Assembly: GCA_964430885.1 (NCBI GenBank)
Contig: CAYSHM010000029.1
Span: 1-34,093 of the forward strand
Source: an uncultured archaeon
Lineage (GTDB): Archaea > Thermoplasmatota > Penumbrarchaeia > JASLWR01
Length of the DNA stretch: 34,093 bases
Direction: 5' to 3'
Shown in pieces: positions 1 through 33,158 of this stretch. The position numbers were made by a program, and so were the translations under genes. Position 1 is the stretch's first letter. Every line of letters begins with the position of its first letter. The notes below the pieces were generated by a model that saw only the letters and a program-made list of their open reading frames with translations, did no database searches and was not told where the DNA came from.

Positions 1-50
1 GGCGGGGAGGGATGAGCAGGGGTTTGATATTGGATTACTCAGGCGGGCTC
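1..50. mobile_element. Putative insertion sequence terminus (IS5-like), cut by the window edge
   Basis: 38-54 (ctcaggcgggctctata) matches the reverse complement of 34038-34054 at 15/17 positions. Read into the element, the end starts GAGCCCGCC and is flanked by TATA. No transposase is visible in the window. Confidence 0.5.
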
Positions 51-218
51 TATACGTATATATATATTTTCCCCAACATCATTTGAAAGGATTTCTGGAA
101 CAATCAGGATTTTTTTATCCAAATTCAGAAGCAGAGTAAAAAACCGGTAAAAATGAACTCGAATTCAATTCAAAAGCTGTTCCAATTCTTTTATATATGC
201 TCAAGATTATTTCGAATA

Positions 219-287
219 CAGTGAAGGCGGAACTCCCCTATTTTATCAGATGAAACCCACCAATCTATTTCTTTTCCGCCTTTACTG
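219..287 (+). ncRNA. Candidate small structured RNA (14-bp stem)
   Basis: cagtgaaggcggaa (219-232) pairs with ttccgcctttactg (274-287) with one G-U. TTTATATA lies at about 190-197 upstream and a T-tract follows. No family recognised. Confidence 0.25.
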
Positions 288-450
288 ATTTTTATTGGGA
301 ATGGATCTTTGATTGTGTAGTGATATCAAAAAGATGTATTATAGCTGAAGATATTTCAATAAAATCACTATTTTGCATAATCAATGATTGTGTTTCAAAG
401 AAATATTGCCATGGGATAAGTCTAAGTCGCGATAATAACATGATGTTTTA

Positions 451-504
451 GCTCTCGCCGGGATCTGAAAATTTCGTCAGAAATTTGCAGGGCAAGGCGA
501 GGGC
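451..504 (+). ncRNA. Candidate structured RNA, long hairpin with internal loop
   Basis: Outer stem gctctcgcc/ggcgagggc and inner stem ctg-a-aaatttc [gtca] gaaattt-g-cag, followed directly by T-tracts. Confidence 0.3.
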
Positions 505-505
505 C

Positions 506-531
506 TTTTATTTTTGCTCACAAAAATAAAA
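506..531. terminator. Bidirectional T-tract terminator / perfect 11-bp inverted repeat
   Basis: ttttatttttg-ctca-caaaaataaaa gives T-runs on both strands, immediately 3' of tRNA-Glu. Confidence 0.55.
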
Positions 532-606
532 TGCTCCCGCCGGGATTTGAACCCGAGTAACTGGCTCGAGAGGCCAGAATGATTGGCCGGACTACACCAC
601 GGGAGC
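532..606 (-). tRNA. tRNA-Glu (anticodon CTC)
   Basis: Reverse complement GCTCCCGTGGTGTAGTCCGGCCAATCATTCTGGCCTCTCGAGCCAGTTACTCGGGTTCAAATCCCGGCGGGAGCA folds as a cloverleaf; anticodon loop CT-CTC-GA; no encoded CCA. Confidence 0.96.
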
Positions 607-642
607 ATCGTATGAATTCGGAATATGGGAATTGTCCAGGTC

Positions 643-657
643 ATTTATATTATTTTT
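643..657 (-). promoter_or_regulatory. Putative BRE/TATA promoter of tRNA-Glu
   Basis: AAAAATAATATAAAT about 40 nt upstream of the tRNA; a similar element lies upstream of tRNA-Gln. Confidence 0.45.
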
Positions 658-696
658 GGGTATTTAACCCCATGTGGCTAATTTGATACTACAGCG

Positions 697-2388
697 CTAT
701 TTCTTCCTGTTCTTCATCTGCTTCTGGATCTTCTTCCATGTATCTCGAAGGCCTACTGTCCTGTTGATCACCAATTTATCCTCGGTGGTGTCAGGATCGA
801 TGCAGAAATATCCCGTTCTCTCGAACTGGAATCCGAACAATGATTCCTTAAATTGTAAAGCAGGGTCAACCTTGCAGCCCTTCAGAACATTCAATGAATC
901 CAGAGAAAGATAATCGAAGAACTCCCCTTTATCCTGGGATAAGGGATCCTCAACAGTGAACAATCGGTCGTAAAGCCTTATCTCTGCGTCAACACCGTAT
1001 TTTGCCGATACCCAGTGAAGTGTTCCACGGACCCTCCTTCCGTCGGGGGCATTTCCGCCTTTGGTCTCAGGGTCCACTGTGCAACGGAGCTCGACAACCT
1101 TATCACCTTCCTTGATAACATCCGTACAGGTTATCAGATAGGCGTTCCGTAGCCTTACCTCTCGGCCCTTGGTCAAACGGAAGAACTTCTTTGGAGGATC
1201 CTCCATGAAATCGCTCTGCTCAATATATATCTCCTTGGTGAACTTGACCGTTCTAGTACCCAGTTCAGGTTCCTCGGGATTGATTATGACATCCATATCC
1301 TCTTCCTTGTCCTCGGGGTAATTCTCCATAACTACCTTCAGAGGGTCAAGAACGCCCATGAATCTGGGGGCAGTTCGGTTCAGATGGTCTCTGACACAGG
1401 ATTCAAGAAGCTCTATTGCTATTGTGCTGTTCACCTTAGCGATGCCCACCCTGGCGCACAGGTCCCGAATGGACTCTGGGGAATAACCCCTGCGTCTTAA
1501 TCCGCTCAAGGTCGGCAGACGCGGGTCGTCCCAACCGTTAACATATCCCCTTTCCACAAGGTCCAGGAGTTTCCTCTTGCTCATAACAGTATATGTCAGG
1601 TTTAGCCTAGCAAACTCGGTCTGCTGAGGTCTATAAACCCCCAGCTCGATCAGGAACCAGTCATAAAGCGGCCGATGATTCTCGAATTCAAGGGTACATA
1701 GTGAATGGGTGATTCGTTCAATGGAATCCTCCAGACCGTGGGCCCAATCGTATGAAGGATAAATGCACCATTTATCCCCCGTATGGTGATGGGTTTTATG
1801 AAGTATCCTGTACATGATAGGGTCGCGCATGTTGAGATTGGGGTGGGACATATCTATTTTGGCTCTTAGAACCTTATCCCCGTCCTGAAACTCGCCTTCG
1901 CCCATCCTTCTGAAAAGGTCCAGGTTTTCTTCCACACTTCTATTGTGATAAGGACTGTTTACACCCGGCTGGATGAATGACCCCCTTTGTTTGCTTATCT
2001 CTTCGGCACTTTGATCGTCAACATAAGCTTTGCCTTTTTTGATTAGGTCCTCGGCATAATCATACATTTCCTGAAAATAATCTGAAGCGAAATATATTCT
2101 ATCCTCCCAGTCAAAACCCAGCCATTTTATATCCTCCTTTATTGATTCAACATACTCCTCATCCTCCTTGGAGGGATTGGTATCGTCAAAACGAAGGTTG
2201 CAAAGACCATCATACTCCTGGGCTATTCCGAAATTGAGGCATATTGATTTTGCATGCCCAATATGGAGATAACCATTTGGCTCAGGAGGAAAACGTGTAT
2301 GGACCCTGCCGTTATGTTTCCCTATTTCATTATCATGATCGATCATTTCTCTTATGAAATCCTTACCCTTTACCGCTTCGTCAGTCAT
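697..2388 (-). CDS. glnS: Glutamine--tRNA ligase (bacterial-type GlnRS)
   Basis: 563 aa with TRFPPEPNGYLHIGHAKS (HIGH), LRFDDTNP, THSLCTLEF, MSKR, GTLHWVS and FQFERTGYF; beta-barrel type anticodon-binding region; GGTGA RBS upstream. Confidence 0.95.
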   Translation of the reverse strand: MTDEAVKGKDFIREMIDHDNEIGKHNGRVHTRFPPEPNGYLHIGHAKSICLNFGIAQEYDGLCNLRFDDTNPSKEDEEYVESIKEDIKWLGFDWEDRIYFASDYFQEMYDYAEDLIKKGKAYVDDQSAEEISKQRGSFIQPGVNSPYHNRSVEENLDLFRRMGEGEFQDGDKVLRAKIDMSHPNLNMRDPIMYRILHKTHHHTGDKWCIYPSYDWAHGLEDSIERITHSLCTLEFENHRPLYDWFLIELGVYRPQQTEFARLNLTYTVMSKRKLLDLVERGYVNGWDDPRLPTLSGLRRRGYSPESIRDLCARVGIAKVNSTIAIELLESCVRDHLNRTAPRFMGVLDPLKVVMENYPEDKEEDMDVIINPEEPELGTRTVKFTKEIYIEQSDFMEDPPKKFFRLTKGREVRLRNAYLITCTDVIKEGDKVVELRCTVDPETKGGNAPDGRRVRGTLHWVSAKYGVDAEIRLYDRLFTVEDPLSQDKGEFFDYLSLDSLNVLKGCKVDPALQFKESLFGFQFERTGYFCIDPDTTEDKLVINRTVGLRDTWKKIQKQMKNRKK

Positions 2389-2631
2389 AATGCTTTCACC
2401 CTAAAATTGTGGTAATGAACTAATGATTATATATATTCAAGGATTGATTTTTTTTCAAATCCATATTGAAATCGGTATTAGAAATATTATATTCTCGTTC
2501 TGTGATTTGAATTTTAATATTCAAAAGGAACAAATAAAATACTTCCTGATGATATTGATTATCGTTCATAAGGGTGCAAATATTCAGGCAATTTTTATAT
2601 TCCTGAAAACCTGTAGGAAAATCCCGGAAGC

Positions 2632-3156
2632 GTGATCCAATTGAGAAAAAACTACAGATACAGAATTTGGAAGAGATCAGGCAATCGGCCAATGGTTATG
2701 ATCTATTTCATTATACTTCTAATGACCCTTCTGTCTTTTTTTTTCTTGGGCCATCCAATGCTGAAGATAGCCGTTCCTTTAATGGGATTGATCCTAATAA
2801 TAATTCCCTTTGCTCCATATATCTATACCGATATCAAGGATAAATGGAATTGGCAGTATTTGGATGTTGGATCAAGTCCTGAAAATATCAAGCGGGATAT
2901 GGAGATATTCCTCAATGAGATGAAACTGAAATTTAAGAAGCAATCCTATTACAGAAGTCATTCCCCGTTCCATAGGTTAAAAGGTTTGGACTACGATATC
3001 ACGAAATTCGATATCAATCTGAGGATCTTGGAAAATGAAACCAATATCTATATCGGCCCAGTGGACCGACTTAATCTCTTGTATGCAAGGGATCTGAAAA
3101 AAGAGATAACCCGTTTCATGGAGGAAATTTGGCTATTGGATAATGAAGAGGAGTAA
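2632..3156 (+). CDS. Hypothetical membrane protein (2 N-terminal TM helices)
   Basis: 174-aa ORF with two hydrophobic segments followed by a soluble domain; start may instead be ATG 2692. Confidence 0.65.
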   Translation: MIQLRKNYRYRIWKRSGNRPMVMIYFIILLMTLLSFFFLGHPMLKIAVPLMGLILIIIPFAPYIYTDIKDKWNWQYLDVGSSPENIKRDMEIFLNEMKLKFKKQSYYRSHSPFHRLKGLDYDITKFDINLRILENETNIYIGPVDRLNLLYARDLKKEITRFMEEIWLLDNEEE

Positions 3157-3203
3157 ACCTGGAGATATTTAAAGAAGAAATGTTCAAGTATAGAGAGAAG
3201 AAG

Positions 3204-3275
3204 TAGCCCCGACCAGATTCGAACTGGTGGCGAGAGATCCAGAGTCTCTCATGTTAACCTCTACACCACGGGGCT
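3204..3275 (-). tRNA. tRNA-Gln (anticodon CTG)
   Basis: Reverse complement AGCCCCGTGGTGTAGAGGTTAACATGAGAGACTCTGGATCTCTCGCCACCAGTTCGAATCTGGTCGGGGCTA folds as a cloverleaf; loop CT-CTG-GA; A1-U72 pair typical of archaeal tRNA-Gln. Confidence 0.95.
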
Positions 3276-3310
3276 CTAAGAAATACAATTGGGCATCAAA
3301 TATCCTCAAA

Positions 3311-3326
3311 TATATTTAATATTTTT
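3311..3326 (-). promoter_or_regulatory. Putative BRE/TATA promoter of tRNA-Gln
   Basis: AAAAATATTAAATATA about 40 nt upstream of the tRNA. Confidence 0.45.
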
Positions 3327-3544
3327 GTGCTGGTTCATTACAAAGCTTCAATAAAAGAATCCAGTTCAGCATCATTTCAAGCGAATATTTCAACTAAGCA
3401 GGATTGAAATTCTTCAATATCTCCTCAACTCACCAAAAAAAGTATATCTATACAGCATTATTTACATATCGATTTGTTCAGATATAACCTATCATTATCT
3501 GGATCATAAATATTGTAAGTTACGAAATATATGGAGCTGGAAAA

Positions 3545-4180
3545 ATGGTGGAAAGAGTACTGGTCATAGCCCCTCATCCTGACGACGGAGAACTCGGCTG
3601 CGGAGCAACTCTGGTTAAGTTCATTGAGCAGGGAAAGGAGGTTTTCTATATAGCACTTTCCAGGTGTGAGAATGCCATACCCGATGGATTTCCCAAGGAT
3701 ACACTCGTCAAGGAATGTTATGAAGCAACTAGTATTTTGGGTATTCCTAAAGAGAATGTGGAGATCTGCAACTACCCCAATAAGCTTTTCCCCAGCCAAA
3801 GACATGAGATATTCGAGAGAATGGAAAGGGCTGGAAGAGAGGTCGAACCGGACATTGTTTTCGTACCTTCCAGGCAGGACAATCACCAGGACCATAATCT
3901 AGTGGCTACTGAAGCGGTCAGGGCTTTTAGGAGAAAAAACACACTAGTGGCATATGAGGAGCCTTGGAATATCATCAATATCACCACGACTGGTTTTTCA
4001 CCCATTGAGAAGAGACATCTTGACCTGAAGATCAAGGCCTTGGACTGTTATGCCACCCAGTCCTTCCAAAAACGGGGTTATTTCGATGAAGGATATATAG
4101 AATCCCTGGCTAAAACAAGAGGTGTGCAGATAAACAGCAAGTACGCCGAGGCTTTCGAGATAGTAAGATGGATACTATGA
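3545..4180 (+). CDS. PIG-L/LmbE family N-acetyl deacetylase
   Basis: APHPDDGELG motif, HQDH metal-binding motif, C-terminal YAEAF. Confidence 0.92.
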   Translation: MVERVLVIAPHPDDGELGCGATLVKFIEQGKEVFYIALSRCENAIPDGFPKDTLVKECYEATSILGIPKENVEICNYPNKLFPSQRHEIFERMERAGREVEPDIVFVPSRQDNHQDHNLVATEAVRAFRRKNTLVAYEEPWNIINITTTGFSPIEKRHLDLKIKALDCYATQSFQKRGYFDEGYIESLAKTRGVQINSKYAEAFEIVRWIL

Positions 4181-4205
4181 GATATAAATAGAAAATTTCT
4201 CGCGG

Positions 4206-5111
4206 TTATTTGTTATTCTTTTTTTCTTCAGCACCGCCCTTATGGGCTTTAACGGTTATGGCCAAATGATGCAGATGGGGGATCTTCTTCTTTGCCAATC
4301 GTTCCATTCTTATTTTCAATCTATCAACCTGGCCTATGGTCATTTTTTCTGGAACCTCGATATGAAGTTCACCTTGATAATAAGGACCGGACTGCCTGAG
4401 CTTCACCATGTTTGAAGATTTAATCTGGGGAAAATGGCGCATTATTTTCCTAAGAACCAGACCATGATCTACACAGCTTTTATTGCATGCATCCACAAGC
4501 ATAAGTGACGATTCTTTAATAGCCGCAAAAGCAATGCTCAGGACTACTAGTGCGATGATGAAGCCTGCTATAGCATCGGCAAGCTCATATCCGAATTTGG
4601 TTAGTGCAAGAGCAATAACAGCGGTAACAGAAGCTGCTCCATCCTTTATGGTATTAAATGCCTCCAATTTTGCTGATCCAAGACTGGTCTTTCGAGCAAC
4701 AATGAATTTAATAATTCCAATTATGATCGCACCCAATGCTGCCACTGATGCCAAGATCATACCCAGAATTGGGGACTCCACAGGGTGCGGATCTATCAGC
4801 TGCTGATAAGACCTCCATGAAATATAGGAAGCAAGCATAACCATCATAACTGCTGCCACTATGGATGCTAGGTTCTCTAATTTGAAATAACCGAAATGAA
4901 ATTTGTGATCAGCTGGCCTTTGAAACAGCTTCAGGCCGATAAATACAATACCAGACACCATACCATCACCGATACAGTCAATGCCATTTGCTGTGAGGGC
5001 AACGCTTTTGGAGATCATCTCACTTACAACAACCTGAACGGCTCCAATAATAATCAAGAAAACGGCGGTGAATCCCGCCATAGCTGCTGTACTTCTAAAA
5101 AAAGGGGTCAT
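4206..5111 (-). CDS. Cation diffusion facilitator (CDF) family transporter
   Basis: Six TM helices, SVALTANGID, PADHKFHFGYFKLE motif, C-terminal dimerisation domain. Confidence 0.9.
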   Translation of the reverse strand: MTPFFRSTAAMAGFTAVFLIIIGAVQVVVSEMISKSVALTANGIDCIGDGMVSGIVFIGLKLFQRPADHKFHFGYFKLENLASIVAAVMMVMLASYISWRSYQQLIDPHPVESPILGMILASVAALGAIIIGIIKFIVARKTSLGSAKLEAFNTIKDGAASVTAVIALALTKFGYELADAIAGFIIALVVLSIAFAAIKESSLMLVDACNKSCVDHGLVLRKIMRHFPQIKSSNMVKLRQSGPYYQGELHIEVPEKMTIGQVDRLKIRMERLAKKKIPHLHHLAITVKAHKGGAEEKKNNK

Positions 5112-5265
5112 ATCAATATCCCTAGAAAGAGGGATTTCAATTATAACAATTATTCTTATTTTTGGATCAATAAGATTTATTGAAGTTTTCGAAATAGAGT
5201 ATCCAATAAGTTCAAGTTGCTTAGGAAATTACTTCAGTATTATTAAAAAAAAGAAAAATCAGGAT

Positions 5266-5976
5266 TCAACATACTGGTATCAAACCCTTGTAGAATATTG
5301 CACCTTCATCAAAACCCATCAGGACCGGATACACCTCTACACCAGAATCAACGGCCTTTCTGAAAACCTTGGCGAAATCGGGGTCAGTGTCCTCCTTAGG
5401 TGCGAAGCAGATCGCATCATCCCGGAATACAAGTATTATCAGAGCCGCTCTGTGGCCTTCCCCTTTTGCCTTTATAAGCTCCTCCACATGCCGCTTGCCC
5501 CTGGTTGTAGGTGCATCAGGGAATAGAGCTCTTCGGTCAATAGCCAATGTACAACCCTTGACCTCCACCCATATATTCTTGCCCCCTTTTATTACCAAAA
5601 AATCGAGCCTGCTTTTACCATAGGTCTGTTCGGGACTACATTTTTCAATTTCCCCGAAAGGACTGATGGTGGCATCGTTCAGGATGGTTTGAGCTATATC
5701 CCGGTGGAATCCGGAATTGACAAGCACCCATTTATCCTCCACCTTTCCAGCAATAAGATCCCATCGGGTCTTTCGATTAGAGTTCTTAGCCTTTCTAATA
5801 AGCACCTGATTCCCTGGACATAGTATCTCCTTAAGACGACCTGGATCCCTGACATGCACCTTTTCTACCTTGTTTGTACCCTCGTCTTCAATATTCACCA
5901 ATCCGAGGAACCTGTTAGGTCGTTCTACAAATACCGCCCGAGCGTCATAATGTATCTCTAACAATTTCCTCTTCAT
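5266..5976 (-). CDS. sfsA: DNA/RNA nuclease SfsA
   Basis: RPNRF, DPGRLKE, SRLDF, VEVKGCTL and FPDAPTTRGKRH motifs. Confidence 0.95.
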   Translation of the reverse strand: MKRKLLEIHYDARAVFVERPNRFLGLVNIEDEGTNKVEKVHVRDPGRLKEILCPGNQVLIRKAKNSNRKTRWDLIAGKVEDKWVLVNSGFHRDIAQTILNDATISPFGEIEKCSPEQTYGKSRLDFLVIKGGKNIWVEVKGCTLAIDRRALFPDAPTTRGKRHVEELIKAKGEGHRAALIILVFRDDAICFAPKEDTDPDFAKVFRKAVDSGVEVYPVLMGFDEGAIFYKGLIPVC

Positions 5977-6016
5977 GCTATTACCCTATTGGTTTGATAT
6001 AAGTTATGTAGATAAC

Positions 6017-7048: not shown

Positions 7049-7369
7049 TTAAATATACTTCTCGATCTTGCCCGCCAACTGATCCTTGGACTGAAAACCC
7101 ACGATCCTGTCAACCTGATTACCGCCCTTAATAATTAGGAGGGTCGGAATACTTCGGACGCCGAACTTCATGGATGTGGCCGGATTGTCATCTACATTCA
7201 ACTTTCCTACAACAAGTTTTCCTTTATAATCCTTGGCCAATTCTTCAAGGACCGGACCTATCATCCTGCACGGACCGCACCAAGGGGCCCAGAAATCCAG
7301 CAGTACCAGTTCATTGTCGTTCACTATGCTGTCAAAAGTGGAATCCGTTACTTTAGTAGTTCCTACCAT
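7049..7369 (-). CDS. trxA: Thioredoxin
   Basis: DFWAPWCGPC and GVRSIPTL; AGGTGA RBS before ATG 7369. Confidence 0.96.
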   Translation of the reverse strand: MVGTTKVTDSTFDSIVNDNELVLLDFWAPWCGPCRMIGPVLEELAKDYKGKLVVGKLNVDDNPATSMKFGVRSIPTLLIIKGGNQVDRIVGFQSKDQLAGKIEKYI

Positions 7370-7374
7370 TGTGA

Positions 7375-7701
7375 TCACCTATTATCTATCTCCTTCAAGA
7401 ACTCTGTGTCTTTTCGAAGCTGTTCAATTATCACCTGATGCATAATATCCATTGCATCAAGTATCTTTTTGTTCCCGATGCTGTAGAACACATTAGTGCC
7501 GTCCTTTCTAGATCTGACTATCTTTCTATCCCTTAGGAACCCAAGATGCTGGGACATGCTGGGCTGGCTCAACTCAAGCTCTTCGCACAGTTCACCCACT
7601 GACAATTCCCCATTCTTCAAGAGACTAAGTATTCTGAGCCTTATGGGGTTTGTGAACACCTTACAGATATCAGCATGCATCTTCAGTATTGCATCGGACA
7701 T
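7375..7701 (-). CDS. ArsR/SmtB family transcriptional repressor
   Basis: Winged-HTH signature NPIRLRILSLL...SVGEL...SQPSMSQHL...VFYS. Confidence 0.93.
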   Translation of the reverse strand: MSDAILKMHADICKVFTNPIRLRILSLLKNGELSVGELCEELELSQPSMSQHLGFLRDRKIVRSRKDGTNVFYSIGNKKILDAMDIMHQVIIEQLRKDTEFLKEIDNR

Positions 7702-8019: not shown

Positions 8020-9681
8020 GTGAATCCGGATATAGAAGAAGAAAATAGAAAGGAAGGTTACGACGATTGGTTGTTACCCGAGGAAACCCGTGAAATGCTG
8101 GTTGAGATGTTCCAAGAACTCAAAGACGATGTCAATCTGGAAGTCTTTTTGAACGATGACAACGAGGATCCTTTCAATCAACTGACCTATCAATTCACAA
8201 GGGACCTGGCTAGGATATCTGAAAAGATAAAGGTCAATGTAAATGACCTGAAAGGCGGAAGTGCAGAGAAATTCCATGTCGAGAGGGGCCCTTCCGTTCT
8301 GATATCTCCTGAAAAATACAGCATAAGGTTCACCGGAGCACCTGCCGGCGAGGAGGGGAAATCATTTCTGAAGGGATTGATACTTGCCTCCACTGGCGAT
8401 AGTGAACTAGAGGTGGCCCAGAGGAAACTGCTGGCCGAACTCAATGAAAAGCGCCAGGCAATGATATTCGTTACTCCGGGATGTCCATACTGTCCGGGTC
8501 AAGTGGTGAATGCCTTCAGAGCTGCAGTAGAAAGACCTGACCTTGTAAAGGCAGAGTGTATTGAGGCCAGCGGGAACATTGACCTGGCAAGGAAATATAA
8601 TGTGGGTGCGGTACCCCATACCGTGATCAATGGAATCACCACCAGCAGAGGACTTGAACCGGAAGATAGATTCATAGAGGAACTTATAACACTTGAGCTC
8701 GAGGAAGACATGAAAAAAGCTAAAGCAAAGCCTTCCCTCAAGGTTCCGGAATCAGGGACCGAAGATGTAGAACTGGTCATCATAGGAGCCGGACCTGCAG
8801 GAATCACTGCGGGAATATATGCAGTGAGGAGCGGAATGAAAGCGGTCATTATTGAAAAGGACAATGTGGGCGGACAGGTGGCCCTGACCCCCGTTGTAGA
8901 AAATTATCCCGGCTTCAAGAACATACCTGGGAAAAACCTCATGGACATATTGAAAGCCCAAGCCCTAGACTATGTTCCCATTCTTGAGAATGAGGGTATT
9001 GAGGAGATCAAAGTGGGTAAAAGGATAGAGGTAATCTCATCCAAGAGACGGTTCCTTTGCGATTCCGTGATCGTGGCCACTGGAGCAGAGCATAGAAAAC
9101 TGGGAGTAAAGGGTGAAGAGCGTTTATCGGGACGCGGGGTCTCCTACTGCGCTACCTGCGATGGTTATCTTTACAGGGGCAAAAAGGTCCTTGTAGTAGG
9201 CGGCGGTGATTCCGCCCTGACTGACTCGCTATACCTGAACAGCCTTGGGGCCAAGGTGCGTATTGTCCATAGACGCGACGAGCTGAGGGGCCAATCCTAT
9301 CTAAGAGAATCAATAGAGAGGGAGAACATACCTGTTATTTGGAATAGTGTGGTGAAACGCATAGGAGGTAAGGATAAGGTTAAGGGAATTGAACTTGAGG
9401 ACACTTCCAGCGGTGCAATCAAGAAGATGTCCGTAGATGCAGTATTCATCTCAGTTGGGTACAATCCCAATAGCCAACTGCTCCAAGATATCGGAGTAAA
9501 GGTCAATGAATACGGTTTTGTCCAAGTTGGTAGAAGATGTCGGACCAATATACCCCGCATCTATGCTGCCGGTGACATCACCGGAGGTGTCAGACAGATC
9601 GTGACAGCGGTCAGCGAAGGGGCTACCGCTGCACTTTCCGCATATGAGAACCTGCATAATCCTTACTGGAAATCCCGCTGA
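8020..9681 (+). CDS. Thioredoxin reductase fused to an N-terminal protein-disulfide oxidoreductase (AhpF-like architecture)
   Basis: N-terminal tandem Trx folds (GAPAGEE, CPYC, GAVP); C-terminal TrxR with GAGPAG, CATCDG, GGGDSA, HRR and AAGD; GGAGG RBS. Confidence 0.92.
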   Translation: MNPDIEEENRKEGYDDWLLPEETREMLVEMFQELKDDVNLEVFLNDDNEDPFNQLTYQFTRDLARISEKIKVNVNDLKGGSAEKFHVERGPSVLISPEKYSIRFTGAPAGEEGKSFLKGLILASTGDSELEVAQRKLLAELNEKRQAMIFVTPGCPYCPGQVVNAFRAAVERPDLVKAECIEASGNIDLARKYNVGAVPHTVINGITTSRGLEPEDRFIEELITLELEEDMKKAKAKPSLKVPESGTEDVELVIIGAGPAGITAGIYAVRSGMKAVIIEKDNVGGQVALTPVVENYPGFKNIPGKNLMDILKAQALDYVPILENEGIEEIKVGKRIEVISSKRRFLCDSVIVATGAEHRKLGVKGEERLSGRGVSYCATCDGYLYRGKKVLVVGGGDSALTDSLYLNSLGAKVRIVHRRDELRGQSYLRESIERENIPVIWNSVVKRIGGKDKVKGIELEDTSSGAIKKMSVDAVFISVGYNPNSQLLQDIGVKVNEYGFVQVGRRCRTNIPRIYAAGDITGGVRQIVTAVSEGATAALSAYENLHNPYWKSR

Positions 9682-15904: not shown

Positions 15905-18718
15905 TCAGTTCTTCCCCCTTATTATTATTATTAATACTAGTATTATCAACAGAACAAGCGCTACTATAATCAGCCAAACCATCAATGAGAATGAAGACTT
16001 CTTTTCTTCAGTTTTTTTAGCGGACTGATTCTCCTCAATAGGTTCATTCTTAATATGGATCTCAATGCTGTGTTCGCCGATGTTATTTTCACCCTTAAAC
16101 AATCCGGCGATCAGACTATAGCTGCCGTTATGATATTGGGAAGTGTTCAATTGGCAGGTCCATGAGCTGCTGGGTGGGCCTAGATCGATCCATCCATATC
16201 CTTCAAGTCTAATACGGATAGACCAGTTCTCCTGATCAGTCGGGTATACCGCATTCCCGCTTATCTCAGCAATACCTTCCAGTGTAGAATTGGACACCGG
16301 ATACTTGATCAGTATGGAATTCTGGGGGGGACGCTTGATAACAGTGATGTTCACTTGTGCCGAAGCAGAGAGATTCCCGTCACTCACATGCAAAACTATT
16401 CCGTGCCGTCCCGGGGGCAGCACTGATTCGAAGAGCGGATCACCTGATAGGAATCCAGTGAGGTTGGAGGTCCAGTTGAACTGTATCGGCAAGCCTTCAG
16501 GGTCCAAACTTCCTGTTGCATTGAATAAGATAGTGTCATCATTATAGAACATTTCATCGTTATCCGGTGAGGAAATATCAATATATGGAGAAAGATCAAC
16601 ATGAGGTTCTTCGGGCGACCTTACCGTAACATTCACCCAATCCTTATCCACGCCACCTCTCCCATCGTTTACGGTGATCTCTAATCGGTAATAACCCGGT
16701 TGGCTAAAATTCATAATGAACCTGTCTTCATACCGGAGGGAACCATTGGGGAACTTCCAGATATATACAAGGGGATCTGAATCTGGATCATATGATGAAC
16801 TGCAGTCAAAAGTAACATTCTCCCCGATCAGAACATCTGCATCATCGGATACAACCGCTACTGGGACATGGTTCTCCCAATCCGACATGAACACTTTTTT
16901 AAAGAATCCGGCAACCTCTACATTATCAATTATCAGGGCAACCTCTCTGTTGTTAGTGATGGAATTGTGGTTCCAGTTTATGCTGGATACCAAGGAATAT
17001 CTGCCGTCAACTATCATACCTTTGTTGTGCGATTTGTTCAGGTTGGTCATTTCTGAATCAAATAGCTTTACTGTTAAATTCAGGTTCTCGGCCTCAGCGA
17101 TCTCCTGAAGATACTCAACGTCCGGCTCGTTGTCAGGTACTGTATTCTGGTCATAATCCGATGAATCCAGAAGTATCTTAACCTCACATCCCCTTCTGGC
17201 AGCATCAAGTAAGGATTCAATATAAGGGTTTGGACCTTTCTTTGCGTTCTCGTTCCACTCCCTGTCAAAATAGAATATCTCCGCCAAAACTTCCTCCTGG
17301 GCCGATTCCAGTAGATGGGTTACTCCCTGATCCTCAATAAGAGATGTATCCGGACTGATCACCGGAACGATATGAGTACTCTGTCCCGATGTATTGGAGT
17401 CGAAATGGAAATGCGGTCTGTAGTCGCCGTTGGGTGTGGACATATTTACTATAAAACCCTCTACTGGCCCGCCGAACTTGTAATGACCTGGAGTGAAGGG
17501 GAAAATATCAGGATAACTGCTGTTCCGGTCATTTTCAAATATACTGTTCAGGTATTCCGCCAAATCATGATCCTCCACCAGAACACCCCAACCCCTGTTT
17601 CCGGCTATGGAGTCGGTTGGTACTCCGGACTGTTTCCAGTTCTCCGTCATTACTACTGATCTATGATCATCGAATATAGCAAATTTGGAATGGAGAAAAT
17701 AATATCTATTGTGGATATGCTTATTCTCATCGTTTATCATAAATCTGACATCAGCACCTCTCTCATAGAGTTCCTGACAGATAAATTTCTCCTGGTTAAC
17801 ATCGGGATTCTGGTCCCCTGTATTTTCCATATGCCAGGCAACCGGGCCGCCTTCCAGTAGAAGATTTACTTCAACACCTCGGTCAAGAGCTTCGAAAAGG
17901 TGTTGGGCAATATGAATGTTAATGAACTGGTAAAGAGATATATTGATGATCGAATCTGCTGAATCGATCTCCCTTGAAATTATATCAAAAGACCCGTCCG
18001 GCGACACGAAAGGAATTATCGCTCCATTCACAGTGAAATTTGAAGGCCGGATCTCCTTCTGGCCCATCCAATGGTTTCGGTAATGGGCCCAATCCTGTCT
18101 CGTATCAGTATCAACATAGGGACCTGATATTCCATCTTTGTTCCGGGTCAGTACCTCTCCCTGGCTTGGATCGGGTATTGAATCCCCGCTCCATCCGGTC
18201 AGGGAGGGTGGGTCCTCACCCCAAGCAAGGGCATCGATGATATTATTGCCATTATCCAGAAGCTGAAGTTCGTCCTTTTCATTGGCCATTTTGAAAGTAT
18301 TATGCATCCCCGTGTCCGGAACGTCAATGGTTGTGTTAGCCCATTCAAGATCGGCACGGAATCCCATATCTTCATAAAAAGCTGTGGCGTTGCCCGTGAC
18401 ATAGAATGTCTGACCTGGTTCGATAAATGTGGACCCAGGAAAAATGATCCATCCCTCTCCGTCGTCTATCTTCCAGACCGACATGTCAACCGTAGTATTA
18501 CCCTGATTGTAGAGGGACACAAATTCATCAGGCTCGTACACATCTGATTCGGGTCTGACGGTGTTGGGGTATACTTCCACCATGAGAATATCCCCATTCC
18601 CTCGGGAGATTGTAGGGGGAACGGTGTTTCCACTTAGGGACATTGTTGAAAAGGTAGATATTAAAAATAACAACACTAGCAAGACTGCTGATAAAGTGCG
18701 GGTGTTCTTCGATTTCAT
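15905..18718 (-). CDS. Exported phospholipase D-family protein with lamin-tail and PKD domains, C-terminal membrane anchor
   Basis: Signal peptide; lamin-tail domain (EVYPN...EFVSLYN); two HKD motifs (HSKFAIFD, HNKGMIVD); PKD repeats (SYDPD, SLDPEG); C-terminal TM helix. Confidence 0.9.
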   Translation of the reverse strand: MKSKNTRTLSAVLLVLLFLISTFSTMSLSGNTVPPTISRGNGDILMVEVYPNTVRPESDVYEPDEFVSLYNQGNTTVDMSVWKIDDGEGWIIFPGSTFIEPGQTFYVTGNATAFYEDMGFRADLEWANTTIDVPDTGMHNTFKMANEKDELQLLDNGNNIIDALAWGEDPPSLTGWSGDSIPDPSQGEVLTRNKDGISGPYVDTDTRQDWAHYRNHWMGQKEIRPSNFTVNGAIIPFVSPDGSFDIISREIDSADSIINISLYQFINIHIAQHLFEALDRGVEVNLLLEGGPVAWHMENTGDQNPDVNQEKFICQELYERGADVRFMINDENKHIHNRYYFLHSKFAIFDDHRSVVMTENWKQSGVPTDSIAGNRGWGVLVEDHDLAEYLNSIFENDRNSSYPDIFPFTPGHYKFGGPVEGFIVNMSTPNGDYRPHFHFDSNTSGQSTHIVPVISPDTSLIEDQGVTHLLESAQEEVLAEIFYFDREWNENAKKGPNPYIESLLDAARRGCEVKILLDSSDYDQNTVPDNEPDVEYLQEIAEAENLNLTVKLFDSEMTNLNKSHNKGMIVDGRYSLVSSINWNHNSITNNREVALIIDNVEVAGFFKKVFMSDWENHVPVAVVSDDADVLIGENVTFDCSSSYDPDSDPLVYIWKFPNGSLRYEDRFIMNFSQPGYYRLEITVNDGRGGVDKDWVNVTVRSPEEPHVDLSPYIDISSPDNDEMFYNDDTILFNATGSLDPEGLPIQFNWTSNLTGFLSGDPLFESVLPPGRHGIVLHVSDGNLSASAQVNITVIKRPPQNSILIKYPVSNSTLEGIAEISGNAVYPTDQENWSIRIRLEGYGWIDLGPPSSSWTCQLNTSQYHNGSYSLIAGLFKGENNIGEHSIEIHIKNEPIEENQSAKKTEEKKSSFSLMVWLIIVALVLLIILVLIIIIRGKN

Positions 18719-30032: not shown

Positions 30033-33000
30033 TCATTTCTGGAGGGGTATTTCTTTAGCTGAGGAATAAACAGAATTAATATGAATTGCCCATGATGTTT
30101 TATTGATAATATCCTCATCAGTTATTATATGAACATCCAGAATTGAATCCATGGATTTCCCCGTTCTTTCCTGGTTCTCTTTGACCAATCTTCTGTCCCA
30201 TTCATCAAGAAGAGCAGTGAGATCATCAAGACGATCATCATCCCCCTCGAAATGAATTAAAAGATCAATATCAGAAGTTGGGCCTGCCAATCCGCTTTTA
30301 GTACTTCCTATAATATATAGAGCTTTCACACCGTATCGATCAGCACCCAAATTAGTTGCCATATCTTCAACCCTTTTCATTCTCCATTTCCAATGATCAG
30401 GTAGTTCAAGATATCCAAGGGCAAAATTGGAATCCCCATCCATTGCTAGTGTTAAGGACGCGCCAGGGCTCAAATCTTCAACCTTGATCAATCGAACAAC
30501 ATCCTTATAATCACACCACGTTGGCAAAAAATCCTCCAATCTATTAGGAACCCCCATAAACAAGTTCTCTTTGAATATGGCACCTTGATCGTCAGGATAA
30601 AGGGGAAGATAATTGATCCCCGCTTCTACTAGGTCCTGGAAGAAATGAGTGCCAAACGATAGTTCTGGTAGATATCGGCCTTTTTTGCGAGCGATTTCTA
30701 TAAGCGCGGTTGTGTTATTAATATCCCCGTACTGAACGGGGACTCCCAATTTTATATCACCTCTGCTGCCCCATCGACCAGGCCCAATGAGTATAAATTT
30801 TCTTTTCGGCAGTTTATAGTTTAATTCACCAATTATTTTCCCAATACTCAGCATATCCTCCCTGCGGTTGAGATTCCCATATGCATCCTCGCTCACATAT
30901 ACGATATATTCAATATTCCTAGCAATCCCAGTAGTAACGTAGCGTGATGCGGTGAACAGTTTTCTACGAAGAGGAATATCTTTTGGTATATTAACCTCCT
31001 GAGCAAACCTAGACTGACTCTGGGGCCTGCATTGAAGAATATATAGATAATCACCGTCTGAAGCAAACTCTACATCCACTGGAGTTCCAAGAGTTTCCTC
31101 TAACAGTACCATTATTTTACTGATCTGGTTAACGAAATCCCCCCCTTCAATCACGCCCTGGAAAGTTACTACCATATCGCTATTAGACGGATCAAGAATC
31201 AATCCTGCTGGTTTGGATAGATTACCTTCCCGGTAAATTGAAACATATCTGTTGAGAGCGGGAATCTCCTCACCGTATCTCTTTAGAAAATCATCTACCC
31301 TTACTGTCTCCAACACATCCTTTTCCAGATTTATTACATCAATATAATGCTGGGAATACTGCAATATTTCATCAGCCATAGTGTTAACCCTAATATCCGG
31401 TCTTTTCGGAGAGAAAAGCAAAGGATAATCATCAGCTACCCGGTCTACCGCTCTTGTTCCAAGGCCCATTACCATACGTACAATTCCATCTTCTCTCCTT
31501 ATTCGAGGAGACCACCGAAACTCGTTATTTGAAAACACGACCCCTGCAAAAAATGGAATGTAATATGGACCTACTCTCTTACCTACAACTTCCTGAATCA
31601 ATATACTCATCTCTTCATTGAAATCGAGAAGGCCTCTTTCTTTTCTATACTCTATGGGATCAGGGCCGAGAGTTGAAGCATATACCTCACCTATGGCATC
31701 GGTTAGAGCATTTAACTTTTCATCTAGCGGACCCTGATTAGTTAAGAAGAGAGATTTGTATTTACCTGAAAAAGCGGCTCCAAAACTGTCCTCTAATAAA
31801 CTGGAAGACCTGACAATTATAGGTTTATCACCTATCTCATCCAGTATCCGCCTTAAACCCACAATAATCTCCTTGGGAAACATTGCATTTTTGAATACCT
31901 GTTCAATGAATGGCGTCTCTTTCCTAATTACTGCTGGATCCTTATATTTGATATGTCCAAGTTCCTCCAATGTATTGTAGTGTATGACATCCAACATTGT
32001 ATCGGAGGTCAAGTACCAGCTCTTTGCAAATTTTATTTTACTCAAATGGGGGTCGAGATCCTTTTCCCTGCTAATTATTCTATCAGCCAAATATACACCG
32101 GATGACTTACCGCCCAATTTTCCAGAGCCCTGAGCTGGTCCGACTATCCTTTCAGTCAATGAGATCAAATCATCAAGCACGATATAATTCTTTGCGATAT
32201 TGATATATTCGAGTCTGCTTGTAAAGAATCTAATCAATAGATTGGTTCTTATGGAGATATCATCTTCAGAAGCCAACTGCAATTCCTCAATAGACATCTC
32301 CTTGAATCGATTCAGTATTGAACTGATTTCGACCAAAGGAATTCCACGTTTTTGAGAGGCTAGAAGAAGCGGACGCGCTTTGTCCTGTTTCATCCATAAT
32401 GTCAATAGCTGAGAAAACTCTTCAGGTTTTATGATCCTTTTTGCTATTTCAAATACCTGCTTCTGAACGTTCATTATCTGATGAAGGTTCTTTCGGGGAT
32501 TCGGCATATTGATTCCGCACCACTCTGATGTTCCGCTGCCTTCCCCTATAGGACAGCTAAGTTCAAGCATTAGATTGTCGATGCTCTCATTTTGAATGCG
32601 GGATAAATGATAAAGCATTTTGCGGGTAATTCTGAAAAGTAAGTTCGGATCGGTTTTCGAGATCATATCAACAATAATCTTCCATTCAGGTTTTCCAATT
32701 GCAGTCTGTAATCCGTTCTCGGTGATCTTCTGCTGCAGATAAGAACCTAATCTTTCCGAAATAGCTTCTAATAATTTGATCTCTTCTGATAGAAATGGGC
32801 CCTTATTCTCAAATGCTCTTTTATCTAGGTAATGCACCCAAATTGACCCAACCTTCTCATTATTGACCGATATGTCTTTTCTGATAAACCATTTTGTTTT
32901 TTGATAATTATCAGTTCGGTACTCATCCCCGAAGATTCCAATTCTCGCACAAGTAATCTCAGGATATTGCCAAGCAGGAGGAATTATTTCCAATATTTTC

Positions 33001-33158
33001 TCCACAACATCATCGGTAGATTTATTCAGATCCTTAAGTATTGAAAATAATTTATACAAGCATTCTAGCTCCTTCAATCTCTCCTGAAGGAGGTGGGAAT
33101 CATTACTATTATGCTTGGTATTTTCAAGGAAACTCGAATTTTCTTTACTTTCTCTCAT
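30033..33158 (-). CDS. PEP/pyruvate-binding (PPDK N-terminal ATP-grasp) domain protein with N-terminal sensor-like region and C-terminal nucleotidyltransferase domain
   Basis: ERLKELECLY...AWQYPEITCARI; LGGKSSG, VRSSSLLED, FSGKY and DVEFA...LQCRPQ; GPGRWGS and FGTHFFQDL; C-terminal IIGSTK...SDIDLLIH. Confidence 0.88.
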   Translation of the reverse strand: MRESKENSSFLENTKHNSNDSHLLQERLKELECLYKLFSILKDLNKSTDDVVEKILEIIPPAWQYPEITCARIGIFGDEYRTDNYQKTKWFIRKDISVNNEKVGSIWVHYLDKRAFENKGPFLSEEIKLLEAISERLGSYLQQKITENGLQTAIGKPEWKIIVDMISKTDPNLLFRITRKMLYHLSRIQNESIDNLMLELSCPIGEGSGTSEWCGINMPNPRKNLHQIMNVQKQVFEIAKRIIKPEEFSQLLTLWMKQDKARPLLLASQKRGIPLVEISSILNRFKEMSIEELQLASEDDISIRTNLLIRFFTSRLEYINIAKNYIVLDDLISLTERIVGPAQGSGKLGGKSSGVYLADRIISREKDLDPHLSKIKFAKSWYLTSDTMLDVIHYNTLEELGHIKYKDPAVIRKETPFIEQVFKNAMFPKEIIVGLRRILDEIGDKPIIVRSSSLLEDSFGAAFSGKYKSLFLTNQGPLDEKLNALTDAIGEVYASTLGPDPIEYRKERGLLDFNEEMSILIQEVVGKRVGPYYIPFFAGVVFSNNEFRWSPRIRREDGIVRMVMGLGTRAVDRVADDYPLLFSPKRPDIRVNTMADEILQYSQHYIDVINLEKDVLETVRVDDFLKRYGEEIPALNRYVSIYREGNLSKPAGLILDPSNSDMVVTFQGVIEGGDFVNQISKIMVLLEETLGTPVDVEFASDGDYLYILQCRPQSQSRFAQEVNIPKDIPLRRKLFTASRYVTTGIARNIEYIVYVSEDAYGNLNRREDMLSIGKIIGELNYKLPKRKFILIGPGRWGSRGDIKLGVPVQYGDINNTTALIEIARKKGRYLPELSFGTHFFQDLVEAGINYLPLYPDDQGAIFKENLFMGVPNRLEDFLPTWCDYKDVVRLIKVEDLSPGASLTLAMDGDSNFALGYLELPDHWKWRMKRVEDMATNLGADRYGVKALYIIGSTKSGLAGPTSDIDLLIHFEGDDDRLDDLTALLDEWDRRLVKENQERTGKSMDSILDVHIITDEDIINKTSWAIHINSVYSSAKEIPLQK

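Follow-up and report, generated by a model that had tools for sequence, protein, structure and literature searches.

According to the textbook statement, all archaea make glutaminyl-tRNA(Gln) by a two-step route, in which a glutamyl-tRNA synthetase that does not discriminate (ND-GluRS) works together with the GatDE amidotransferase. Reviews from 2008, 2016 and 2022 state that an archaeal glutaminyl-tRNA synthetase (GlnRS) is not known and offer the identity set of tRNA-Gln as the reason (PMC2330236, PMC5388404, PMC9499178, PMC8762117). A complex of GatDE with tRNA-Gln has been described, and the accessible portion of that work reports that GatDE reads the A1:U72 pair and the D-loop (PMC2330236). 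In the accessible part of a 2024 preprint, a GlnRS is placed beside cox genes in Heimdallarchaeia (bioRxiv 10.1101/2024.07.04.601786). Our full-text literature search, which had subscription journals and preprint supplements outside its reach, found no paper on GlnRS in Thermoplasmatota; PMC13140500, considered as a report of an archaeal GlnRS, was not counted because the ‘GlnRS’ listed there stands under an amidotransferase EC number. Here we report on a 34,093-nucleotide stretch of DNA (the window) from an uncultured archaeon of the phylum Thermoplasmatota, in which the initial annotation had proposed a bacterial-type GlnRS gene (glnS) between genes for tRNA-Gln and tRNA-Glu. Judged from its sequence, the window gene is a real, intact, bacterial-type GlnRS gene in an archaeal chromosome, and the locus contradicts the textbook statement. 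With a probability of roughly 0.8, we read it as encoding a functional enzyme that was acquired from bacteria in an ancestor within the phylum and that would most likely be the sole route to Gln-tRNA(Gln) in this organism, GatDE having been lost. The phylum of the acquiring ancestor was probably Thermoplasmatota. The Heimdallarchaeia enzyme is likewise a GlnRS in an archaeon, but the part of the preprint cited places it in another phylum and in a cox-gene neighborhood (10.1101/2024.07.04.601786).

The glnS open reading frame (ORF) occupies positions 697..2388 on the minus strand, starts with ATG and encodes a 563-amino-acid (aa) protein with HIGH and MSKR in its translation. The protein passed the NCBIfam glnS model TIGR00440 (718.1 bits, cut-off 425.8) and stayed under the cut-off of the archaeal gltX model TIGR00463 (375.5 bits, cut-off 401.75). 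Pfam recognized tRNA-synt_1c (372 bits), tRNA-synt_1c_C (98.7 bits) and tRNA-synt_1c_C2 (64.9 bits), with both beta-barrel anticodon-binding domains (PF03950, PF20974) above cut-off. Scores against solved structures were highest for bacterial GlnRS, namely 5bnz (703 bits) and the E. coli GlnRS entries (673-675 bits), over residues 5-554, compared to 522 bits for 2hz7 (851-aa chain), 433-468 bits for glutamine--tRNA ligase chains of 776-817 residues, which we take to be eukaryotic GlnRS, and 211 bits for the archaeal ND-GluRS 3aii; the bacterial type assigned in the initial annotation is thus borne out. In its length class, domain order, motifs and possession of an unpairing loop, itself of atypical sequence, the protein resembles bacterial GlnRS (E. 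coli GlnS, PDB 1gtr/1qtq; best solved match 5bnz). Its top NCBIfam score was with NF011291 (844.6 bits), a likeness to the Deinococcus-type GlnRS with a YqeY tail (2hz7). Unlike that type, it has no C-terminal YqeY domain, the match running from profile position 10 to 566 of 769, and it is also without an N-terminal appendage.

The window GlnRS was aligned with E. coli GlnS and with relatives from archaea (52) and bacteria (79). In E. coli numbering, the window protein keeps R30, E34, D66, Y211, C229 and Q255 together with HIGH and MSK, as well as R341, R402, R410, R412, Q517 and R520, and the checked catalytic, pocket and anticodon-reading positions were identical in 48-53 of the 53 archaeal GlnRS. 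Arg30, Asp66, Tyr211, Cys229 and Gln255 are presumably the glutamine-binding pocket; Arg30, Tyr211, Cys229 and Gln255 were identical in the window and in all 53 archaeal sequences, S269 and K270 were present in 53/53, and M268 in 51/53. In the available text of PMC2978374, Arg341, Gln517 and Arg520 read U35, Arg410 and Arg412 read position 34, and G36 is read by a loop (residues 399-402) with Arg402 that is missing from ND-GluRS. Arg402 was found in 53/53 archaeal GlnRS, and position 401 was Tyr or Phe in 51/53 and His in 2/53, like most bacterial rows. Position 235 differs from the bacterial enzyme, with Asn in 50/53 archaeal GlnRS compared to Asp in E. coli. The family scores and the residues kept agree with the earlier description of an intact 563-aa GlnRS with HIGH and MSKR.

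Contig C29, which the window covers from end to end, belongs to a 3.13-Mb genome (G000; 44 contigs, 91.6% complete, 1.4% contaminated) that contains an archaeal small-subunit (SSU) rRNA (1503.7 bits) and an archaeal-type GluRS (584 bits). We considered whether the contig with glnS might come from contaminating bacteria or from a chimeric join, given that the assembly is binned from many contigs, that the closest non-archaeal relatives of the enzyme are bacterial (52-66% identity for the best named matches, compared to 65-73% for archaeal GlnRS) and that several Logan contigs branch at the tRNA-Glu gene. The branching is, however, expected because this sequence is shared among organisms, and the composition of C29 fits the genome in both GC content (0.422 vs 0.435) and tetranucleotide usage (r = 0.978 against the other contigs; 0.955-0.998 for the main body, with five contigs lower). 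Both flanking tRNAs are archaeal in type, the tRNA-Gln acceptor stem AGCCCCG with A1:U72 being that of most of the 37 tRNA-Gln genes from 25 GlnRS-free genomes, and as many as 44 further archaeal loci share the layout, which in some of them stands on contigs of 233-785 kb. In two runs that may belong to the source sample, window positions 578-6000 are matched with 0 differences by a Logan contig of 24,697 nt that was built independently and extends across glnS and tRNA-Gln to the sequence further on. Short Logan contigs from two further samples of the study bridged tRNA-Glu (289-674) and joined it to the end of glnS (578-705). In G180 and G174, a single contig (785 kb and 67 kb, respectively) carries both glnS and an archaeal GluRS gene, and the sole archaeal locus among the 80 named loci matched (L016, labelled Thermoplasmatota, from which the phylum name used for the relatives is taken) encodes a 70% identical protein in the same tRNA-flanked layout. 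Contamination or misjoining is hardly credible in light of these results, and the archaeal context read from the window alone was upheld by the SSU rRNA and GluRS of the genome and by the composition of C29.

We searched the genome for the remainder of the Gln-tRNA(Gln) pathway. Profile searches gave no match for gatE, gatB or gatA, and the best gatD match, at 36.7 bits, stayed below the cut-off of 324. When the neighboring gatD and gatE ORFs of G015 and G004, two relatives from the window's class, served as tblastn queries, nothing in the genome matched at E 1e-3, while the ORFs flanking them did match. In these two relatives gatD, gatE and queH (epoxyqueuosine reductase) are adjacent and co-oriented (L273, G015:C102; L274, G004:C38). 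The queH homologue of the window's genome, 33% identical and of unsure orthology, lies 6.4 kb inside contig C10 and has a TrmB-like gene upstream, not gatDE. The genome encodes a single GluRS, at C28:17644-19350, and a single GlnRS, and its 38 tRNA genes (ARAGORN) include tRNA-Gln CUG (C29) and UUG (C4:133982-134056) and two tRNA-Glu. It also encodes an AsnRS (454 bits, cut-off 342.6), which covers asparagine, so no tRNA-dependent amidotransferase would be needed. The system is like the archaeal ND-GluRS and GatDE route (M. thermautotrophicus, 3aii) in its Gln-tRNA(Gln) product, the A1:U72 tRNA body and an archaeal-type GluRS; unlike that route, no gatD or gatE was found here and glutamine would be attached directly.

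We analyzed the distribution of both pathways in 301 genomes sampled evenly from the phylum; the counts are descriptive since kin are not independent. GlnRS scored above cut-off in 58/301 genomes, and in 25/41 close and more distant relatives; among the 214 genomes with a completeness of 90% or more and contamination of 5% or less, 39 had a GlnRS match at E 1e-100 or better. gatE was above cut-off in 272/301, and 28 genomes, eight of them judged by absence from the match table, had no gatE match. Of these 28, 22 were GlnRS-positive and six GlnRS-negative, three of the six being 76-79% complete; gatE was thus missing in 22/58 GlnRS-bearing genomes compared to 6/243 of the others. In the window's family f1 (88-93% complete), GlnRS was present in 4/4 genomes and gatE in 0/4, and in the sister family f7 gatE was kept in 22/24 and GlnRS seen in 14/24.

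These counts bear on the alternative that GlnRS just supplements a GatDE that is present in the organism but outside the incomplete assembly (44 contigs). About 36 of the 58 GlnRS-positive genomes, most of f7 among them, do have gatE as well, but the absence of gatE throughout f1, the empty tblastn search for gatD and gatE fragments, and the position of the queH homologue in mid-contig beside a TrmB-like gene make this alternative unlikely. The initial annotation had left open whether GlnRS supplements or replaces GatDE; replacement is what f1 looks like, coexistence what is seen in most of f7, and we consider that GlnRS very probably replaced GatDE in f1. As a separate observation, G012 (one 3.6-Mb contig, window's class, 78% complete) lacked gatE as well as a GlnRS above cut-off, and BLAST with the window's tRNA-Gln gave no match in it.

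We parsed 101 distinct tRNA-Gln genes for the features that GlnRS and GatDE might read. The 37 genes from 25 GlnRS-free genomes carried A73 in 36 cases and G73 in one, all with a 9-nt D-loop and A1:U72, and the D-loop ended in CAA in 35. In 28 genomes with both GlnRS and gatE, 38 genes carried A73 (16) or G73 (22), with D-loops of 7 nt (9 genes), 8 nt (13) or 9 nt (16). The 26 genes from 18 genomes with GlnRS and no gatE had A73 in five and G73 in 21, and D-loops of 7 nt in four, 8 nt in 20 and 9 nt in two. C25, as part of G10:C25, occurred in 10/64 tRNA-Gln from GlnRS-bearing genomes compared to 0/37 from GlnRS-free genomes. Within family f21, A73 was found in 9/9 tRNA-Gln of five GlnRS-free genomes and G73 throughout in 19 GlnRS-bearing genomes. 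The accessible texts describe G73 as the bacterial and A73 as the archaeal discriminator (PMC9499178), trace E. coli glutamine identity to the anticodon, to the acceptor stem with its discriminator and to the 10-25 pair (PMC9976931), and give U1:A72 for bacterial tRNA-Gln (PMC2978374). The differences seen in these genes fit a shift of tRNA-Gln toward GlnRS and away from GatDE. Bacterial tRNA-Gln also has G3:C70; unlike in the bacterial system, the host here is an archaeon and the presumed substrate has A1:U72, C3:G70 and either A73 or G73. Most GlnRS-bearing genomes have, compared to the tRNA of the GatDE route, a shorter D-loop, a part that GatDE contacts according to the available text (PMC2330236).

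Phylogenetically independent contrasts on the GluRS tree left just six independent pairs (seven for gatE loss). The association with GlnRS was positive in 4.9 contrasts and negative in 0 for a short D-loop (median p 0.0625), 3.5 and 0.1 for G73 (median p 0.125), and 2.2 of 7 and 0 for gatE loss (median p 0.5); none of these was significant, and all contrasts share one direction. The window's tRNA-Gln(CUG) has A1:U72, G2:C71, C3:G70, A73, U13:A22, an 8-nt D-loop, a CUCUGGA loop and no encoded CCA, and the tRNA-Gln(UUG) of the same genome has G73 and a 9-nt D-loop. A73 is kept in relatives from the window's family and in f7, so G73 was not required for the GlnRS takeover. We checked 12 genomes with GlnRS and gatE for extra native tRNA-Gln; most had just the glnS-linked CUG copy, and G159 had a native-type tRNA-Gln(UUG) copy.

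Some individual tRNA-Gln genes deserve mention in their own right. G105 (f42; L157, L167), GlnRS-free and gatE-bearing, has tRNA-Gln(CUG) copies with G73, the sole case among the 25 GlnRS-free genomes. G204, with GlnRS and gatE, has a tRNA-Gln(CUG) with G73 and the loop TTCTGGA about 50 nt from gatE (L266, G204:C55; G204:C55:35134-37008), and another tRNA-Gln copy 1.5 kb upstream of glnS on a different contig. In G040 (L109, G040:C5), a copy with G73, a D-loop of 7 nt and an encoded CCA stands upstream of glnS, and downstream of it lies a second tRNA-Gln-like gene that is native in its A73 and 9-nt D-loop ending in CAA but has the odd anticodon loop TCCTGCA. At f7 loci (e.g. L099, L100, L102-L104, L141, L143, L145), tRNA-Gln(CUG), and often tRNA-Glu(CUC), encode a 3’ CCA, which those of the window do not.

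The origin of the enzyme was approached with two trees, for which the bacterial rows were the 80 closest named matches, an unbalanced set, minus L016, whose protein duplicated another row. With FastTree (53 archaeal rows, 79 bacterial rows and E. coli; the genome’s own GluRS as outgroup), 53/53 archaeal rows formed one clade with Shimodaira-Hasegawa (SH)-like support of 99, nested among bacteria. A short IQ-TREE search under LG+G4 (34 archaeal and 39 bacterial rows, three archaeal GluRS outgroups) again placed 34/34 archaeal rows in one clade among bacteria, with 99 in the SH-like approximate likelihood ratio test (SH-aLRT). In the IQ-TREE result the nearest bacterial row was a Planctomycetaceae metagenome-assembled genome (SH-aLRT 91), and Deltaproteobacteria, Omnitrophota, Dehalococcoidia and other rows surround the archaeal clade. 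The direction and time of the transfer are inferred. The initial annotation had supposed a horizontal acquisition; its bacterial origin is supported by the nesting of the archaeal clade within bacterial GlnRS, and with GlnRS in 58 of the 301 genomes the acquisition is not private to this archaeon.

We compared the divergence of GlnRS with that of GluRS in 946 genome pairs (44 genomes). Median GlnRS identity was 0.688 at a GluRS identity of 0.25-0.35 (439 pairs) and 0.724 at 0.55-0.65 (216 pairs), increasing only among close kin, so that the archaeal GlnRS clade is shallow relative to its hosts. On a GluRS tree of 68 genomes, the presence of GlnRS needs at least 11 changes, at least seven of them on well-supported branches. 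The shallow clade and the number of presence changes suggest an entry of GlnRS later than the split of the classes, followed by movement inside the phylum; a slower clock together with many losses may also produce this pattern. We also asked if the GlnRS tree documents transfer within the phylum. The window GlnRS grouped with f7 or G008, but the monophyly of f1 was not rejected: with the three f1 rows held together, the approximately unbiased test gave p-AU 0.462, which leaves vertical descent within f1 unrejected, and within-phylum transfer was not retained as a finding of this tree.

The tRNA-Gln(CUG) gene of the window (3203..3275, minus strand; ARAGORN, Rfam 59.5 bits, parsed features) ends 814 nt before the glnS start, and the tRNA-Glu(CUC) gene (531..607, minus strand; ARAGORN, Rfam RF00005 54.2 bits; G1:C72, A73, long D-loop) lies 89 nt beyond the glnS stop. 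Both are co-oriented with glnS, in accordance with the distances of about 0.8 kb and 90 nt noted at first. They are the only tRNA genes in the window (ARAGORN), and an Rfam search of window positions 1-4000 found no RNA element besides the two. We scanned the flanks of 53 archaeal glnS loci, to at most 2.5 kb either way, and of 79 bacterial loci, to at most 4 kb; a tRNA-Gln gene was found at 44/53 archaeal loci but only 1/79 bacterial loci, indicating that the linkage of glnS with tRNA genes arose in archaea; the other 78 bacterial glnS genes are not flanked in this way. The glnS-linked tRNAs keep the archaeal acceptor stem (A1:U72, G2:C71, C3:G70) and so did not come from bacteria. Usually, tRNA-Gln(CUG) stands immediately upstream of the archaeal glnS in the same orientation, and in three f1 relatives of the window it is just 87-131 nt from the stop-to-stop glnS frame; at 16 archaeal loci tRNA-Gln(UUG) is also found 35-242 nt downstream (mostly 35-127 nt). 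A co-oriented tRNA-Glu(CUC) 64-258 nt downstream occurs at 11 loci, the window and 10 others, all of the window's class. The recurrence of the tRNA-flanked layout at archaeal glnS loci answers the earlier proposal to look for synteny in relatives.

To the initial annotation, the clustering with both tRNAs had suggested a functional locus. The clustering itself is recurrent, but GlnRS-free genomes show similar neighbors: G004, of the window's class, has tRNA-Gln(CUG) and tRNA-Glu(CUC) 4 nt apart, and GlnRS-free f21 genomes have tRNA-Gln(UUG) followed by tRNA-Glu(UUC). The simplest reading is that the window's glnS sits inside an older tRNA-Gln/tRNA-Glu tandem, and the locus need not be a purpose-built operon. 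The putative expression signals were also located. A GGTGA Shine-Dalgarno-like motif (2396..2400, minus strand), 7 nt 5’ of the ATG, is complementary to the UCACC of the genome’s own 16S 3’ end ...GGATCACCTCCT, which agrees with the ribosome-binding site first proposed and suggests a function in translation. An AT-rich TATA-like stretch (2427..2437, minus strand), about 40-50 nt upstream of the start, may be a promoter of glnS itself, and a candidate TATA-like box, TTAAATATAT (3310..3319, minus strand), lies about 35-44 nt upstream of the tRNA-Gln 5’ end. On the opposite strand, a 174-aa ORF (2632..3156, plus strand) with 0 Pfam families fills the space from tRNA-Gln to glnS; it is probably outside the GlnRS system.

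In the mechanism that we propose, the CUG or UUG anticodon would be bound via Arg341, Gln517 and Arg520 (U35), the Arg402 loop (G36) and Arg410 and Arg412 (position 34). The weak A1:U72 pair, which corresponds in archaea to the U1:A72 of bacteria, would be opened by the unpairing loop, and glutamine would be attached directly. The enzyme would accept A73, and tRNA-Glu would be rejected through G1:C72 and C36. Once GlnRS was present, GatDE would have become dispensable and would then have been lost in family f1. Activity of the enzyme on the host tRNAs is predicted. The proposal further supposes that mischarging of tRNA-Gln by the host GluRS has ceased, or that GluRS is evaded by the retuned tRNA.

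Several points weigh against this reading. According to PMC2330236, archaeal tRNA-Gln is not charged by the GlnRS of E. coli or of yeast, and the window's tRNA-Gln(CUG) keeps A73, not the G73 used by E. coli GlnRS. The unpairing loop (E. coli 132-141), in which Leu136 opens the 1:72 pair according to the portion of PMC2978374 available, is present but atypical: the window has SKQRGSFI with Phe136, unlike the Leu136 of E. coli and of 47/53 archaeal GlnRS. In a separate check, no link of the unpairing loop or residue 235 to the tRNA discriminator base was found among the aligned sequences. We aligned 68 GluRS (23 from GlnRS-free genomes, 25 from genomes with GlnRS and gatE, 20 from genomes with GlnRS and no gatE), and no column conserved in the 23 was changed in more than 52% of either GlnRS-bearing group. 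Since the genome is 91.6% complete, the absence of gatDE is strong but not proven. Finally, the bacterial sample in the trees was unbalanced and eukaryotic and Asgard GlnRS were left out of them, and a donor was not identified from the sequences compared. Within f21, GluRS scored somewhat lower with the archaeal gltX profile where GlnRS is present (443-520 bits) than in GlnRS-free genomes (505-535 bits), which is suggestive only as a sign of change in GluRS. Separately, several GlnRS-bearing f21 genomes had weaker gatE E-values.

The unusual unpairing loop, together with the differences between the genome’s own two tRNA-Gln (A73 or G73, 8- or 9-nt D-loop), would also suit an enzyme kept for another role, serving one isoacceptor or persisting as a relaxed or moonlighting paralogue, with an unrecognized route making Gln-tRNA. 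All checked catalytic, glutamine-pocket and anticodon-reading positions are nevertheless conserved, neither amidotransferase type was found, and the genome has one GluRS and one GlnRS only, and we regard this explanation as quite improbable. Direct glutaminylation by a bacterial-type GlnRS that took the place of GatDE is the reading that we prefer.

A bolder proposal, to which we give somewhat less than even odds, is that glnS and a retuned archaeal tRNA-Gln form a mobile cassette that has spread among diverged classes, with repeated loss of GatDE and pathway replacement still ongoing. If so, the cassette tRNAs would have kept the archaeal acceptor stem and acquired G73 and a shortened D-loop, and perhaps other archaeal phyla have been reached. 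The window's genome would then represent a late stage, with GatDE gone and one GlnRS serving both A73 and G73 isoacceptors, and it would no longer hold that GlnRS is kept out of Archaea by the identity set of archaeal tRNA-Gln. Apart from the cassette proposal, the phylum presents a series of genomes with no GlnRS, with GlnRS and GatDE, and with GlnRS alone, along which the changes in the discriminator and D-loop of tRNA-Gln can be read. This graded series and the matching tRNA-Gln changes make the barrier hypothesis directly testable with a few recombinant enzymes and tRNA transcripts. The series is a natural example of the displacement of one aminoacylation pathway by another, and GlnRS/tRNA pairs with a hybrid identity set may interest genetic-code engineers.

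We also recorded features of the genome and the window away from the glnS locus. Contigs C18 (61 kb) and C34 (24 kb) of G000 have GC contents of 0.506 and 0.496, compared to 0.435 for the genome, and tetranucleotide correlations of 0.735 and 0.815, compared to 0.92-0.998 elsewhere; they may be mobile elements or mis-binned. In the window, a redox cluster is formed by a thioredoxin and an ArsR-type regulator (7049-7701, minus strand) beside a 553-aa fusion of a thioredoxin domain with a pyridine-nucleotide-disulphide-oxidoreductase (8020-9681, plus strand). A 937-aa ORF (15905-18718, minus strand) with one lamin-tail, two PLD-like and one PKD domain is probably a secreted or surface phospholipase-D-like protein, and a 1041-aa ORF (30033-33158, minus strand) combines PPDK_N (the pyruvate phosphate dikinase ATP-binding domain) with a C-terminal nucleotidyltransferase domain.

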